From IMG/VR virus record IMGVR_UViG_2703718673_000007: a stretch of 19,598 bases of DNA; one strand, written 5' to 3'. Each line of letters opens with the position of its first letter. Position 1 is the first letter of the stretch. Made by a program: the position numbers. The stretch comes from a virus. Lineage: Duplodnaviria > Heunggongvirae > Uroviricota > Caudoviricetes. This document shows, in pieces, positions 6,001 through 18,000 of this stretch.

Positions 6001-9000
6001 GGGGATTTATCCGGCTGGGAAAACGACTGGGCTTTGAGCGAATGCCGGATGATGAGGATGGCTTCATGGTGTTCAGGATAGCGGTCTGACTGCTACAGTT
6101 TTCATCATTGTGTTTAAACCAACATTGTAATTCACATTCTGACCCTGCTCCGGCAGGGTTTTTTGTTATCCAGGGGGCCATTATGGGTGGAAGTAAAGGC
6201 GGTGGTGATACCAAAGTAAAACCAACAGCAGCGCAAATAGCACAGGAAGAAGTGGCCTGGAAAGGGTGGCAGGATTACAAAAATATCCTCCGCCCGGCTG
6301 AAGATAACTTCATGGAAAAGGTCGATGACCTGAACAGTGAGCAGCAGTACGACAATATTGCTGGCACCACAAATCTGGGGTATCAGAAACAGTTTGGCGA
6401 AGCACGGAAGGAGCTTGCGGGTAATCTTGCTCAGTCCGGCGTTGACCCATCCAGTGGTCGTTTTAATGCGGTAATGAATGCGAACCAGAGTGACCAGGTA
6501 ACCGGGCAGATTGACACAACCACACGGGGGCAGGTATCGCAGGCAGATAAGTATGTTGCCGGGCTACAGGATGTTGCTGCTCTCGGTTCTGGTCAGAAGG
6601 CGGATGCGTTACAGAGTTTTAACTCTCTGGCAGACAGCAGTCTGGCAAAAGCTAAATCGGATGCACAGGCGGCGTTTACGAAACAGCAGGGGCGAGCCTC
6701 TCTTGTTGGCGCTGGTCTGGGTGCGGCAGGTGCATATGCGATGCATAAGGCTGGCGGTAGCGGAGGAAGTGGCGGTGCTAAAACACCTGGCACCGGCGCT
6801 AATGCCATTCAGCATCAGGCTCAGAACTGGAGACTGTAATTATGGAGTATGGCAAATACGAAACTCTCGCAAGGGCTGGTTATTCAGGAGCAGACCGCCC
6901 ACAGGGTGACTGGCAGACGTCAGCAGCGCTGACACGCCAACAATACGACGACTGGCGAACCAGATATTTGCCCCGCGTGGCAAGGCTGGCTGACCTTGGG
7001 GAGAACAACAGTCTGATGAATGCACAGCTTGCACGGGTGGGAGGCCTTGCCACTTCCAGTCTCCGTACAGCGCAGATGGCGCAGGATAACCAGATGGCGA
7101 GATACGGGGTAAACCGCCCGGATAATCCCGACAGTAATACGCTGGGGTTACGTAATGCCCTGGCAATTGCTGGCGCGAAAAATGGTATCCGTGAAGCCGA
7201 ACAGGATCGCCAGATGAATATTCTGACGGGGGCTTCTGCACCGGCAAGACAGAAACTGAGTGTTGGCGGCCAACTGGTGGCAGCGTAAGGGGGCAATATG
7301 GGATACGGTTTACTGGATATTGCAAATCAGTCGCGGCGTGAGGCATTACAGGGAATAAGTGACGCAGACAGACGACGTGAAGAAATTGAGGCTGCGAACA
7401 AACAGATGGCGGCGCAACAGAAAGCGCAGAACAAGCAGAATATCGGTACGGGCATTGGTACGGGGGCGGCTATTGGCGCATCCGTTGGTGGTCCTGTTGG
7501 TGCTGTTGCTGGAGCAGTAATTGGCGGCATTGCTGGTTCTTTGTTTTAAGGAGTGGTGAATGAGCGGATTTGCACAGGGGTTACTTGCCGGATTCAGCAC
7601 CGTTGACCAGGCAATGACCCGTCGTAAGGAGCTTGGTCTGCGTGAAGCACAGCTTGCCCGGCAACAGAAAAATAACGAGCGCGATTTTGAGTTTGCGCAG
7701 TCTCAGTTTGAACATAATAAAAACGTTGATCAGCGGAACTTTGATTACAGAGCCAAAGTTGACGACCGTAATTATGCACTGAAGGAGAGGGAGTTTAACG
7801 CTAACCAGAATTACCGGAATGCGTCACTGGGTATGGAGCAGCAGCGACTCCAGTTGCAGAAATACAACCAGCGACGGCTTGAGTATAACGATATGATTGC
7901 CCATAGCCAGCCACTAATGGAAGCGCTTGGAAAAGCAATTGAGGCTGGCGATCAGGAGGCTGCAACGCGTCTGTTCGGGCAGCTGCCAAAGGGACATCCA
8001 TTAATTCTTATGTCAAACGAAGGCTATGCAGCGAAAGCGGGTCAGGCCGTGATCAACCTGCAAAAAATCTTTGGTGATAAGCCGGACATGGCGATCGATT
8101 CGCTGAATACCCCGGAAAATCTCGATGTGCTTTCCGGCGTGTTTGCCCCGGAACTACAACAGCGTATTGGCATGCCTGATTCAACCGGGGACAAAACGAT
8201 AAAAGAGGCCAGGATTGGCAGTATCGTACCAGCGCAGCAGGAAGGGTACGTACTTATTGGCCTTGATCTCACATACAGCGATGGCTCCACCGCGCATAAA
8301 CCTGTAACAGAATACGGCAGTGCGCACCCTGATGATCAAACCGTGCTGGCGATACCCGTTGATAAGGCTATCGCTCAGGTCAGGGATCGCAGCAAATTTG
8401 CAGAGATATCGAAAAATTATGGTTATTTTATGCCGAAGCAGCAGGGACTTTCTCTGAAAGAGCTTCAGAAGGGGGCCAGCAACGTAGCGGCGGACGCGAT
8501 CAAGAATGGCGGTAATGCTCAGGCTGCGGTGGATGAATATTATGCTGCGACTGGTTCACAACCGCATCAACAGAAAATTCAGCAACAAAAACTTCAGCAA
8601 CAGGTTATCAACTGGGCGGGAGATGATCCTGACAAGCTGTCATTTGCCAGAAATGTAGCGGCCCGTCAGCCTGAAATGCTGGAACCTCAGAATCAGAAAT
8701 TGCTGGAGAACGGGTATGCGAATTTTCTCCGTATTCAAAAGGCCAGGGGGGAACAGGCCAGAGATGAAAGTGCTTCATCTGCATCTCAGTTTATCCGTGG
8801 ACTGAAACAGAATTACGCCCAGTAATTCACGATATTCCATTAATACCATTTCCTGATGCCCGGCCATTGTGCCGGGTTTTTTTATGGAGTCTGTATGGCC
8901 TATTCAGAGGAACAGCGTCCTGAGGCGCAACTCGGTAACCAGAATCGTAACAGCCTGAACATTCAGCAACCCGGCGAAACTGACAGCTATGAAGCATTTT

Positions 9001-15000: not shown

Positions 15001-18000
15001 TCCGTGAGGCCGGACTTGAAGAGAACGGTGTGGTGGATGCCTGGCAGAACGCCTACCGTTACTACGTTCCCCTGAAAGGTCAGGATGTTGACGGTGTGGT
15101 GTCACTGCCCCGTACAGGTAAGGGCTTCACCATCGGCGGACGTGAAAGCAGGCAGGCCATGGGGCGTGCATCCCGGGCACAGTCTCCGTCCACTCAGGCG
15201 ATACAGGACCTGAGCGAATCGCTGATCCGCCATCGCAAAAACGAAGTGGGTAACGCCTTCCTGAAACTGGTGCAGGATAATCCCGACAAGGATTACTGGC
15301 AGGTATTCACCGATGACAGACCGGATACCATGCGGACGATTGCAGAGCGCAAGGACCAGGAAACTGGTGAAACCATTCGCGAAGTTGTCGAACGCCCTGT
15401 ACCGATGGCAATGATGGCAGACCGGTACTTCACCACCAAAAAGAACGGCAAAACGTACTACATCAAACTCCATGATCCGCGCCTGATGCGTGCGATGAAG
15501 AGTATGGGACCGGAAACCAGCAATGCCTTTGTTCGTACGCTGGGGAAAGTTAACCGCTTCCTGGCAACGGTGAACACGTCGTATAACCCGGAATTCCTGG
15601 TCAGTAACTTCATCCGTGACGTGCAGACGGCGGTGATGAACCTGAAGGCGGAGCAGGGAAGGAGCGACGGTAAACTGAAAGGGCTGGATAACTTATCCGC
15701 CCTGGCTGTGGTGAAAGACAGCCGTTCTGCCATGTCAGCCGTATACGCCAGTCTGCGTGGTAAAACCCTCACGGGAAAAGGTGCACAGTGGCAGAAGGTG
15801 TGGAAAGAGTTTGTTGAGGACGGAGGGAAAACCGGCTGGTTTAACATGGGTGACCTTGAAGGCCAGCAGAAGGAAATGGATCGCCTTGTCTCACTGGCGA
15901 AGGGGGGATGGAAAGGCCAGAGTATCGGTGCATGGAATTCGTTCCTTAACCTTGTCGAGGATGCCAACGGTGCGGTTGAAAACGCTCTGCGTCTTTCTGC
16001 CTATAAGCACGCCCGTGATGCCGGTTTGTCACGCCAGCAGGCGGCGTCTCTTGCCAAAAACATGACGGTGAACTTTAACCGTCGTGGTGAGCAGGGGGCG
16101 CTGATGAATTCGCTGTACATGTTCGCCAACGCCAGCATTCAGGGAACGGCAAATCTGGTGAGAACGCTCGGACATCTTAATGGTGAGGGACCTTTACTGG
16201 AGCGCCTTCGCTGGAAGAATCTGAATGTTCCGCAGAAAATCGCGCTTGCCGCTGTGGGAGCAGGTTATCTGCTTGGCTCGCTTAACCGCAGCGTGGCGGG
16301 TGAGGATGATGACGGGGTTAACTGGTATGACAAGGTGCCGTCTCATGTGAAAGAGCGTAACCTCGTCATTATGAAATCGGTGTTCGGGGGCAAGGCCGGA
16401 GAGTACTGGAGTATTCCTCTGCCTTACGGGTACAACGTTTTCTTCCTGCTCGGGCATACTGCTGAAGGTGTGGCGGCGGGTGACCTGACGGCGTCCCGTG
16501 CTGCCGGTAATGTTGTTGGTGGTGTGCTTGGTGCATTCAGCCCGATTGGCAGTGAGACGTCGGAAACACTGTCCGGGGCATTGCTGAAAAATGCAGCGCC
16601 GACCATTCTGCGTCCGTTTGCGAACCTTGCCATGAATGAAAACTTCATGGGGGCGCAGATTTACCAGGAGAACATGCCGTTTGGTACACCAAAACCTGAC
16701 AGCCAGCTGGGAAGACGTTCAACGCCAGAAGCGTACAAGGCGTTTGCATCCTGGCTGAATGCGTTCTCAGGTGGCAGCCAGTACCGTCCCGGCGCGGTGG
16801 ATATCACACCGGAATCGCTGAAATTCTGGATTGACTATATCTCCGGAGGGACAGGGCGCTTCATTTCCAAAACCACGGATGCGGCGGTGAAATCGCTGAA
16901 TGGTATTGATATACCGGAACAGCAGGTGCCCTTCCTGGGGAAAATTTCGGGGGAGGTGATGCCGTATGCAGACCAGCAGAAGATGTACGACCGGATGACA
17001 GAGATTGCGCAGTATCACGCAGAGCTGAAGAGTCTGACCGGTGCAGAAAGAACGGCGTTCATTGACGAGAACAACGGAAAATTGTCGATGAACGGGCTTA
17101 TGCAGGATACCCGGAAGAGACTGAAGGATTTGCGTAAACAGCGTGATGCCATTTACGCCGACAGTACTCTCAGTCTGGCGCAACAGTCGGCGATGGTGAA
17201 ATCGGTAGAGCGGGATATGAAAATTGCCGTGGATCGGTTTAACCGCGAGTACAACAAAAAAGTGGGAGTGGATTAACAGAAATGGCCCCGTACGGAAGTG
17301 CGGGGCTGATTAAGAAATAAACACTCATTGACCTGTAATAACCGGAGCTATTAACATATAGTCAGAAGAGCATTTCATGTGATACAGAGAGCCGATTTAT
17401 GTTTAATGAAGAAAAAGTTGCGCAAATGGCAGCGTATTTGCTGAAAAAGCATGGCGGATCTATGCGTTTCATTAAGCTGAAGCAGCAACGGTAATGGCGA
17501 ATAGCATTTATGAGCAAAATAATCTTGATATGTTATTAGGCGATCTGATGTAACCGGGATGATGTTCACCCCTTATCGCCGGGGAACAATACCGGCAATC
17601 AGAATTGCGGATGGAACTATTCAGGCCCACGATGATATCGATGAGGAGTTTTTTCAGCCAGTATTGGATGGCTTTCTTATATCCAAATATACGCCATTTG
17701 ACATCCTCCACGCCCTGAAGGACGGGGTTTTACAGCGCACCGGATAAGATTCGGTGTTTTGTTGAAAAATACTGTGATAACAAACAGAAAACCCGTCAGT
17801 AAGACGGGCTTAGCAAGCTGGGACGGTTACTTTAATAATTTCAGTGCCTTTACATCCACTTCAACACTGCTCAGGTCTTTATCAATTTCACCCTCAATTC
17901 TTACTTTGTCTTTCGGAGAAACATTCTGACCGGCCCATATGCTGTCATCGATATCCGTGACAATTGTCCCGCTATTGTCACGAAACTCATAACGTTCATC

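Follow-up and report, generated by a model that had tools for sequence, protein, structure and literature searches.

In the podophage N4, the virion RNA polymerase (vRNAP, gp50) has an N-terminal domain that contains predicted membrane-spanning helices at residues 224-278, inserts into nanodiscs and has been proposed as an anchor by which the polymerase, once ejected, is fixed to the inner membrane and the periplasmic gp51 tunnel (PMC13434306). Other large phage proteins belong to the 'polyvalent protein' class, which is found in phages and conjugative elements and was defined along with the LPD domains by Iyer, Burroughs, Anand, de Souza and Aravind in 2017. Here we analyze a giant gene whose product shares features with both, and which is located on the + strand at positions 8895-17276 of a 19,598-nucleotide stretch of viral DNA (IMG/VR virus record IMGVR_UViG_2703718673_000007; the whole stretch is referred to as the window). 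The window is the late region of the Shiga toxin 2 (Stx2)-converting phage 933W, and the giant gene, which accounts for 14% of the phage genome, matches 933W L0134, also named ST933Wp72 (AF125520/NC_000924, 49064-57445), with 100% identity from end to end. Copies that are 90-100% identical were counted in 186 phage records and, among 5426 complete E. coli genomes, in 427, nearly always as one chromosomal copy, and the record of phage VT2-Sakai (Sp5) displays 100.0% nucleotide identity over 100% of the query. Stx2 is carried mainly by 933W-type short-tailed phages, and about one in twelve complete E. coli genomes thus carries the giant gene.

The same gene has been studied in two other phages. 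In Sp5 it is ORF80 (ECs1242; ECs1228 is a tail fibre gene and not the giant), which was described as encoding '2,793 amino acid residues', and in phage phi24B it is gp47, an ortholog with 97% protein identity; the length of the Sp5 product (2793 amino acids, aa), the genome position and the neighbours are all equal. Deletion of ORF80 abolished plaques and lysogens and left heads and DNA packaging normal, complementation restored function, and the mutant heads were not bound by an antibody against the tail fibre (ORF67), from which the protein was concluded to act in tail assembly in an unknown role, with a COG1483 AAA+ match also being noted (Mondal et al. 2016, PMC5155283). For phi24B, cryo-electron microscopy (cryo-EM) was reported alongside virion proteomics in an April 2026 preprint, in which gp47 yielded 10962 peptide-spectrum matches (PSMs), a count exceeded only by that of the major capsid protein (17998), and 746 PSMs versus 101 for the portal protein in a batch digest (bioRxiv 10.64898/2026.04.10.717836). 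The model of the capsid and tail in that study (portal, two adaptor rings, nozzle, needle and fibres) does not contain gp47; the lumen of the adaptor and tail holds diffuse, unassigned density that is gone in ejected particles, and the authors proposed that gp47 is an encapsidated ejection protein (bioRxiv 10.64898/2026.04.10.717836). Essentiality, presence in the virion and absence from the resolved tail and capsid have therefore been shown in the literature, either for the same gene or for its 97%-identical ortholog.

A preliminary description of the window, made from its sequence, had singled the gene out as the strongest candidate for an undescribed function. As an entity the gene is already known, because L0134 is catalogued, has been assigned four Pfam domains, has been knocked out in Sp5 and has an ortholog that was seen in virions; in databases the product is annotated as an 'LPD5/LPD38 domain-containing protein', and PHROG 616, whose function is listed as unknown, matches it end to end. 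The gene nevertheless remains enigmatic, its activities being predicted ones, and the shortlist that the description gave for this prophage late gene (a virion-packaged ejection or pilot protein, or a polyvalent protein) contains the class that the evidence favours. New, as far as we could check, are the homology of its N-terminal domain to that of N4 gp50, a layout of conserved ends and a swappable middle, corrected domain assignments and a block of cysteine-free genes.

We consider it likely that the giant protein is an internal virion protein of 933W-type Stx podophages that is ejected with the DNA. It would reside in the T=9 capsid, would leave through the tail together with the DNA and would be built as a delivery chassis, formed by two conserved ends, that carries an enzyme payload. 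At one end, an N4-like N-domain (aa 155-430) would dock at the inner membrane or at the ejectosome; at the other, a C-terminal module (C-module, aa 1840-2793), to which we assign this role because it is the best-conserved part, would serve incorporation into the particle and/or the building of a trans-envelope conduit. A linker of ~475 aa and bead-like domains would enable threading through the tail as 'beads on a string'. After delivery into the newly infected cell, the polyprotein (or host proteins) would probably be cleaved by two zincin domains, a RelE/BECR RNase-like domain would act on RNA, and LPD5 would act there as well. For this protein we infer ejection, membrane insertion, self-processing, RNase activity and a packaging module from the comparisons described below.

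The N-domain and the two conserved ends

The protein begins with a leader (aa 1-154, 8895..9356) that matches no family and in which 40% of the alignment columns vary among Stx-phage alleles, followed by the N-domain (aa 155-430, 9357..10184). A HMMER search of 1.84 billion representative proteins with aa 1-480 returned only 103 hits, and essentially every full-length N-domain match in this exhaustive search lies at the extreme N-terminus of a protein of 2000-4665 aa; a word-indexed search with the N-terminus recovered enterobacterial relatives only, so that the wider set came from the exhaustive search. When a profile of 66 N-domain sequences was compared with the single N4 gp50 sequence, it matched with a probability of 96.2 (P 2e-9); the real score was 79, as compared to 18.7 for the reversed sequence and at most 22.7 for 40 locally shuffled controls. 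Profile-profile comparison by hhalign of the N-domain family with ten Schitoviridae vRNAP N-terminal regions gave a probability of 99.1 (expectation value, E, 6.7e-19; 234 columns), whereas the top score among thirty column-shuffled controls was 19.8. The alignment pairs aa 155-421 of the giant protein with about aa 200-441 of N4 gp50.

Proteins from other phages connect the two families. The giant protein of Ralstonia phage Heva matches the vRNAP profile with a probability of 98.0 (E 2e-13, 31% identity) and gp69 of phage BcepMigl with a probability of 82 (E 1e-5), and the 933W-family profile in turn matches both (probabilities of 98.7 and 97.9, respectively). The relationship is visible with profiles only, as phmmer found no match between the giant protein and N4 gp50, and it is confined to gp50 among the N4 proteins compared, as the N-domain profile matched neither gp51 nor gp52. 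Judged from these profile comparisons, aa 155-421 and the N-terminal, membrane-binding domain of N4 vRNAP are homologous. The sole hydrophobic 19-residue segment of the giant protein (aa 181-199, 9435-9491; Kyte-Doolittle value 1.38) aligns inside the N4 stretch of residues 224-278, and a glycine zipper with four GxxxG repeats (GAAFGAAMGAPFGAVAG; aa 409-425, 10119-10169) follows at the end of the N-domain; both this weakly hydrophobic segment and the zipper thus lie within the domain that is homologous to the nanodisc-binding domain of N4. In the literature that we searched, no paper links vRNAP to the giant proteins of Stx phages, and we did not find the N-domain link in Iyer et al. (2017), whose searches with the N4 N-terminal region are stated to have yielded N4-like proteins only.

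The opposite end of the protein is formed by the C-module (aa 1840-2793, 14412..17273), which is mostly α-helical and contains the LPD38 domain (aa 2476-2681, 16320-16937). A tblastn search of phage genomes showed the giant proteins of several phage groups to share the final ~900 aa (1871-2664 and beyond), with identities of 37-40% in Vibrio phages and of ~27% over ~770 aa in GP4-like Ralstonia and Bcep22-like Burkholderia phages (E 1e-52 to 3e-54), and a match was also obtained in a Bacteroides phage. In the Vibrio, Ralstonia and Burkholderia phages the giants measure 2502, 4545 and 4658 aa, and each is the last gene of the structural operon, as in Stx phages. An AlphaFold model of the C-module based on 32 diverse sequences (pLDDT 82, pTM 0.78) is helical with a small β domain at about aa 2135-2192, and no relative of it was found among solved structures.

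In relatives, the C-module always occupies the extreme C-terminus, whereas the domains upstream of it vary among database homologues and include an ADP-ribosyltransferase, methyltransferases, GGDEF, InPase and LPD3. A similar picture is obtained from the other end. Among the 63 N-domain homologues of at least 1500 aa, 30 also end in the C-module, 1-14 residues from the C-terminus, and the other 33, in which it was not detected, may be truncated or too divergent; three N-domain homologues carry in their middles a methyltransferase, a Sno-type helicase or LPD5/LPD1. Relatives therefore keep the N-domain and the C-module and swap the middle. Variation among five Stx-phage alleles, which are 91-100% identical, is also unevenly distributed: the C-module and the two peptidase-like regions are near-invariant (2-5% variable columns), and hot spots with 33-64% variable columns are located in the first 154 aa, at the end of the linker and in the LPD5 region. 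Among E. coli prophages, copies that are otherwise near-identical carry sharply different alleles of the MuF_C/RNase-like domain and of LPD5, and in the allele P0132, which is 75% identical overall, the MuF_C segment is largely replaced. The sharp differences in otherwise near-identical copies suggest that payload parts are exchanged in a cassette-like manner among prophage alleles.

Domains of the proposed payload

The N-domain is followed by an acidic linker in which Pro, Gln and Glu are abundant (aa 431-905, 10185..11609), which is presumably disordered, as judged by its composition. Payload domains begin after a helical segment (aa 906-1050) that precedes LPD5 (aa 1051-1200; the two together at 11610..12494), a β/α domain in the predicted model; Pfam and the model define this part, in which 33-40% of columns vary. 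Matches above the curated Pfam cut-offs were obtained for LPD5 (6.5e-45), LPD1 (5e-24), MuF_C (1e-17) and LPD38 (8e-48), and a sequence search of the whole protein against the PDB returned nothing below an E of 0.8. There are exactly two HExxH motifs in the protein, HEWFH at aa 1284 and HEIIH at aa 1551, and a motif scan found neither a Walker A nor a DExD/H motif. The Pfam families of polymerases, helicases and methyltransferases are likewise unmatched, and no T7-like single-subunit RNA polymerase domain was found, either with Pfam or by phmmer comparison with N4 gp50.

The first HExxH motif (12744-12758) lies in a zincin-like metallopeptidase ('MPTase') core that forms one region with LPD1 (aa 1201-1440, 12495..13214; LPD1 at aa 1361-1440). 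In an alignment of aa 906-1850, H1263, H1284, E1285, H1288, D1291 and E1375, which are predicted to act as ligands and in catalysis, are invariant in 27 homologues. These residues constitute the exact set of the phage-type MPTase, defined as a His ending strand 2, the HExxH motif, an Asp three residues on and a Glu on the next helix (Iyer et al. 2017). LPD5 and LPD1 flank the core, and the two co-occur in most of the homologues retrieved. The second motif (HEIIH, aa 1551-1555, 13545-13559) is embedded in the pattern LRHE[ILV][ILV]HxG, which is kept in divergent homologues, and on the strength of this pattern we read the surrounding region (aa 1441-1749, 13215..14141; 4.5% variable columns) as a second zincin-like domain. 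A fold search with the predicted model of the central region returned zincin matches that are not assignable to the first as opposed to the second domain.

MuF_C (aa 1750-1839, 14142..14411; Pfam) retains the conserved His1752 and an 'ASVYG' motif. This domain is defined as a PBECR RNase-like domain, and the predicted central model matches RelE/BrnT toxins; as modeled, the MuF_C of the giant protein is a predicted RNase-like domain with a RelE/BECR fold. Only this C-terminal PBECR module (PF18819) is present, as the N-terminal MuF portal-associated domain (Pfam Phage_Mu_F) was unmatched. Two earlier assignments were rejected. The 'MuF-C metallopeptidase' of the phi24B preprint, which was said to digest peptidoglycan, conflates two different domains, as MuF_C is PBECR RNase-like, the model matches RelE/BrnT and the HExxH domains are located elsewhere. 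The AAA+ ATPase proposed in 2016 from COG1483 finds no counterpart in the protein, which lacks a Walker A motif and matches no P-loop or AAA family of Pfam at an E of 0.1 or better. In relatives, an SLT lytic transglycosylase domain begins the protein upstream of the N4-like N-domain (aa 79-178 in BcepMigl gp69 and aa 56-148 in the Heva giant). The giant of Vibrio phage K250, like that of 933W, is without an SLT domain. A peptidoglycan-hydrolase domain is not universal among ejection proteins.

The four Pfam families are those that define polyvalent proteins, and they would also fit a dispensable anti-defence effector, similar to DarB, that shields incoming DNA from restriction or CRISPR. This alternative gains from relatives whose cargo is a methyltransferase plus a Sno-type helicase or an ADP-ribosyltransferase, from the allelic hot spot in the LPD5 region and from a match to PHROG 10089 ('DarB-like antirestriction'). 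The PHROG match, however, covers aa 2351-2681 only and is limited to the shared C-module; the methyltransferase and helicase that define DarB were not found by Pfam or by motif scan; and it is the two ends of the protein, and not the cargo, that are best conserved. Furthermore, P1 darB mutants are viable on non-restricting hosts. By contrast, the giant gene is essential for plaques and for lysogenisation on E. coli K-12 (PMC5155283). We regard a dispensable anti-defence role as unlikely.

The cysteine-free block, the virion and the surroundings of the gene

The giant protein contains no cysteine in 2793 aa, and only 6 cysteines occur in the 182,019 aa of its 63 homologues. Cysteine is also absent from N4 gp50, gp51 and gp52 and from T7 gp15 and gp16, whereas 2-8 cysteines are present in the T7 portal, capsid, tail-tube and fibre proteins and in the 933W nozzle. 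Cysteine avoidance is used here as an empirical signature of ejected proteins and not as a formal criterion. Since cysteine is wholly absent, the protein would be suited to unfolded passage through the oxidising periplasm.

Four further cysteine-free proteins are encoded on the + strand immediately upstream: a 218-aa protein (6183-6839; ortholog of phi24B gp51), a 148-aa protein (6842-7288; phi24B gp50), an 83-aa glycine-zipper protein annotated 'bacteriocin' (7298-7549; an 86-aa ortholog in phi24B) and a 421-aa protein (7560-8825; phi24B gp48) that corresponds to the essential ORF79 of Sp5. Their phi24B orthologs were all detected by mass spectrometry in purified virions and none is in the cryo-EM model; the 'bacteriocin' ortholog was taken for a contaminant by the authors, and in the proteome sheet the 421-aa ortholog bears the label 'Transcription factor?' (bioRxiv 10.64898/2026.04.10.717836). 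Three of the four have homologues in the same order beside the giant gene of Vibrio phage K250, including the ORF79 product, which matches the neighbour of that giant; a BLASTP comparison of the ORF79 product with BcepMigl gp68 was not significant. The four upstream genes probably act with the giant gene, and their products look like co-ejected proteins; we infer that the products of the whole block exit from the capsid and pass through the oxidising periplasm as unfolded chains. The central needle fibre (422 aa), which is released on ejection, also has no cysteine.

The Sp5 phenotype has been explained by a tail-assembly factor or a structural tail component, possibly an ATPase that powers tail formation (Mondal et al. 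2016). In favour of this explanation, the heads of the deletion mutant are DNA-filled and are not recognised by the tail-fibre antibody, and a COG1483 'AAA+' match was reported (PMC5155283). The features expected of an ATPase are missing, as described above, and the complete phi24B tail model is without gp47 despite its second-highest spectrum count in the virion. In addition, the N-domain has its homologue in an ejected protein, and a tail-less phenotype can be indirect, for example if a portal-bound internal protein is needed for attachment of the adaptor and nozzle. A direct role in tail assembly or structure is therefore improbable in our judgement.

The same virion data could also be accounted for by an internal head core, scaffold or DNA-organising body, such as the T7 core or the phiKZ inner body, that serves portal conformation and is not translocated. 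The abundance of gp47 spectra fits this explanation, as do its failure to be resolved in both the icosahedral and the asymmetric phi24B maps and the defect seen when the protein is lost, which concerns the portal vertex at a stage after packaging. Against it stand the homology of the N-domain to a membrane-binding domain of an ejected protein, the SLT domain of relatives, which is useful only outside the capsid, enzyme-like cargo domains that would have no role inside it, and a strict cysteine avoidance that is shared with proven ejected proteins. We judge a purely internal body to be very unlikely.

Ejection with the DNA thus remains the explanation that we favour, and several observations weigh against it. 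In the comparison with N4, the single 933W sequence matches the vRNAP profile at the right place and only weakly (probability 2.4, E 0.02), so that the N4 homology of the 933W protein rests on family profiles. The C-module compared with the N4 C-terminal domain at control level when a single sequence was used, and by hhalign its profile scored 21 against a nine-sequence alignment of the Schitoviridae C2 region, below the shuffled maximum of 28.8; homology of the C-terminal halves of the 933W giant and N4 gp50 is rejected at this sensitivity, and the chassis is consequently shared with N4 only in part. No classical transmembrane helix was found in the giant protein, whose best 19-residue segment reaches the value of 1.38 given above, and no SLT, lysozyme or other recognised peptidoglycan hydrolase domain was found in the 933W giant. 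Peptidase and RNase functions are predicted for it on the basis of fold and motifs, its ejection into the cell is proposed from indirect evidence, and the phi24B data come from a preprint. The most serious point is the failure of the tail-fibre antibody to bind the Sp5 deletion heads. Classical ejection-protein mutants of P22 and T7 still assemble tails, whereas the Sp5 mutant loses its tail fibres, and a role as cargo only is therefore insufficient. Either a part of the giant protein, possibly together with the ORF79 product, is located at the portal or tail lumen for attachment of the adaptor and nozzle, or the protein has a second, morphogenetic role.

The ORF listing and translation of the window reveal a single stop-free frame on the + strand (8856..17276; stop codon at 17274-17276) that comprises 2806 codons when counted from its first ATG, for which the odds of occurring without a stop are ~10^-58.5 if uniform codon usage is assumed. 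RefSeq places the start at this first ATG (8856), which lacks a ribosome-binding site and is overlapped by a GC-rich, terminator-like hairpin (8858-8877, followed by a T-run) situated between the 421-aa gene and the giant gene. By contrast, the ATG at 8895, which gives a product of 2793 aa, is preceded by a Shine-Dalgarno sequence (GGAG, 8886-8889), and distant homologues have N-termini that coincide, when aligned, with residue 1 of that product. For these reasons the start at 8895 is the best-supported by sequence, ahead of RefSeq's 8856, and the in-frame extension (8856..8894) is probably untranslated. The preliminary description had taken the frame for a real, uninterrupted gene of 8.4 kb encoding about 2793 aa, and the translation, the start evidence and the chance odds bear this out. 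An assembly artefact is excluded because the same unbroken ORF recurs at 90-100% identity in the phage records and E. coli genomes counted above. Long antisense ORFs under the giant gene (up to 172 aa) are of the kind that older GenBank records annotate spuriously: AP004402 and AP005153 list 19 small 'hypothetical proteins' there, and HM208303 lists three antisense coding sequences with fanciful similarity notes.

The composition of the protein also agrees with what had been read from its sequence. The Gly/Ala-rich, hydrophobic N-terminal region corresponds to aa 100-500, where Gly and Ala account for 25-33% of residues and the segment at aa 181-199 is located; the acidic, Pro/Gln-rich linker was recovered by composition per 100 aa at aa 431-905; the two HExxH motifs are at aa 1284 and aa 1551, with no others; and the Gly/Ala-rich segments at nucleotides 16200-16560 (aa ~2435-2555) form moderately hydrophobic helices within or adjoining the Pfam LPD38 match. 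Nor had any polymerase, helicase P-loop or methyltransferase motif been recognised, in agreement with the Walker A scan and with Pfam.

Upstream of the cysteine-free block, the window encodes the nozzle (549-2252, 567 aa, 8 cysteines; Sp5 ORF70, phi24B gp57) and the central needle fibre (2249-3517, Pfam Phage_Tail_Tip; Sp5 ORF71, phi24B gp56). A Lom/Ail outer-membrane β-barrel gene (4524-5258; Pfam Ail_Lom, 1.5e-32) lies among the structural genes, in a low-GC stretch (about 41-42% at 3500-5000 versus 50-58% elsewhere in the window) that is typical of a moron insertion. Downstream of the giant gene (17277-19598), the GC content decreases to 42-45% and the GC skew reverses. According to the 933W annotation, this part contains a YgiW/YdeI-family OB-fold gene on the - strand (17827-18171), the hokW/mokW-sokW toxin-antisense RNA module (about 18291-18565) and Ea22-like genes on the opposite strand. 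As the GC drop, the skew reversal and opposite-strand genes follow it, the giant gene is the last gene of the late, structural operon of 933W, downstream of the nozzle, the needle and other virion proteins.

With lom and hok/sok nearby, the giant could in principle be a lysogenic-conversion toxin or a large surface protein made by the prophage. Its very large size, its HExxH motifs and the proximity of lom are compatible with this idea, and an old phi24B record notes a SignalP 'leader peptide'. The SignalP note, however, concerns a start 13 codons further 5', so that the 'leader' belongs to the unsupported start inside the terminator hairpin. Toxin and adhesin families of Pfam are unmatched, and the gene is located in the late structural operon, has its product in the virion and is essential for propagation, which makes this alternative exceedingly improbable.

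Comparison with known systems

The N4 link points to a common ejection chassis underlying giant 'polyvalent' proteins, as opposed to loose strings of effectors, and it leads to a testable model that specifies a membrane-docking part, a payload part and residues to mutate. Should host defences or RNA be disabled by the payload at entry, this would bear on which E. coli strains become new Stx producers. A broader proposal, which we put forward tentatively and hold to be somewhat less than an even prospect, is that the Stx giants, the 'DarB-like' giants of Bcep22/GP4-like phages and N4 vRNAP represent one ancient device of T=9 podophages: a cysteine-free protein that is threaded through the tail, docks through its N-domain to the ejectosome or inner membrane and carries a swappable payload. 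The payloads that such a device would deliver are an RNA polymerase, a helicase-methylase, an ADP-ribosyltransferase or, in Stx phages, two peptidases and an RNase-like domain. According to the same proposal, the 933W payload would be freed by its own zincins and, during the initial minutes of infection, would turn against host RNA or defence proteins, and the giant and the four upstream proteins would form a five-protein ejectosome.

Among the described systems, N4 gp50 resembles the giant protein in size (about 2800-3500 aa), in being free of cysteine, in its encapsidation in a T=9 podophage and in being unseen in virion maps. Both proteins also have a similar layout, with a homologous N-domain, a low-complexity linker, a cargo, a zincin-like domain with an HExxH motif and then a helical C-terminal region of ~1000 aa without structural relatives. 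They differ in that N4 gp50 contains an RNA polymerase domain and in that its C-terminal domain is not detectably related to the C-module. N4 packages about 4 copies per virion, and the phi24B spectral counts, on a rough reading only, suggest more copies for the Stx protein.

The giants of Lessievirus phages (BcepMigl gp69 and JC1 gp69) and of Heva (F1_00007) share with the 933W protein an LPD38-containing C-module, the N4-like N-domain, their position as the last gene of the structural operon and association with the virion. In JC1, which is Bcep22-like, the giant 'DarB-like' gp69 (51 unique peptides) and its upstream neighbour were found to be virion-associated (PMC9144972). The portal, capsid and nozzle proteins of Bcep22-like and GP4-like phages are also related to those of 933W. 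Their giants are larger (4500-4660 aa) and start with an SLT domain, and JC1 gp69 has a reported HepA-superfamily helicase-like region (PMC9144972), whereas the 933W giant instead contains LPD5, two zincin-like domains and MuF_C.

The polyvalent proteins of Iyer et al. (2017) resemble the giant in its four domain families, in the phage-type zincin MPTase as a hub and in a neighbourhood of virion genes. That framework views such a protein as a string of effectors throughout, whereas the ends of the giant protein behave as a conserved, essential chassis. P1 DarB consists of an N6-adenine methyltransferase and an SF2 helicase, neither of which was found in the 933W giant. The ejection proteins of T7 (gp16, gp15 and gp14) and P22 (gp16, gp20 and gp7) resemble it in an envelope-bridging, expelled role, which for the giant is the proposed one, in being cysteine-free or nearly so and in forming a cluster that ends the structural genes; no sequence relationship to them was found, and T7 gp16 is a protein of 1318 aa with an SLT domain. 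Finally, the ejectosome proposed for 933W would comprise five proteins, in contrast to the three-protein sets of T7, P22 and N4.

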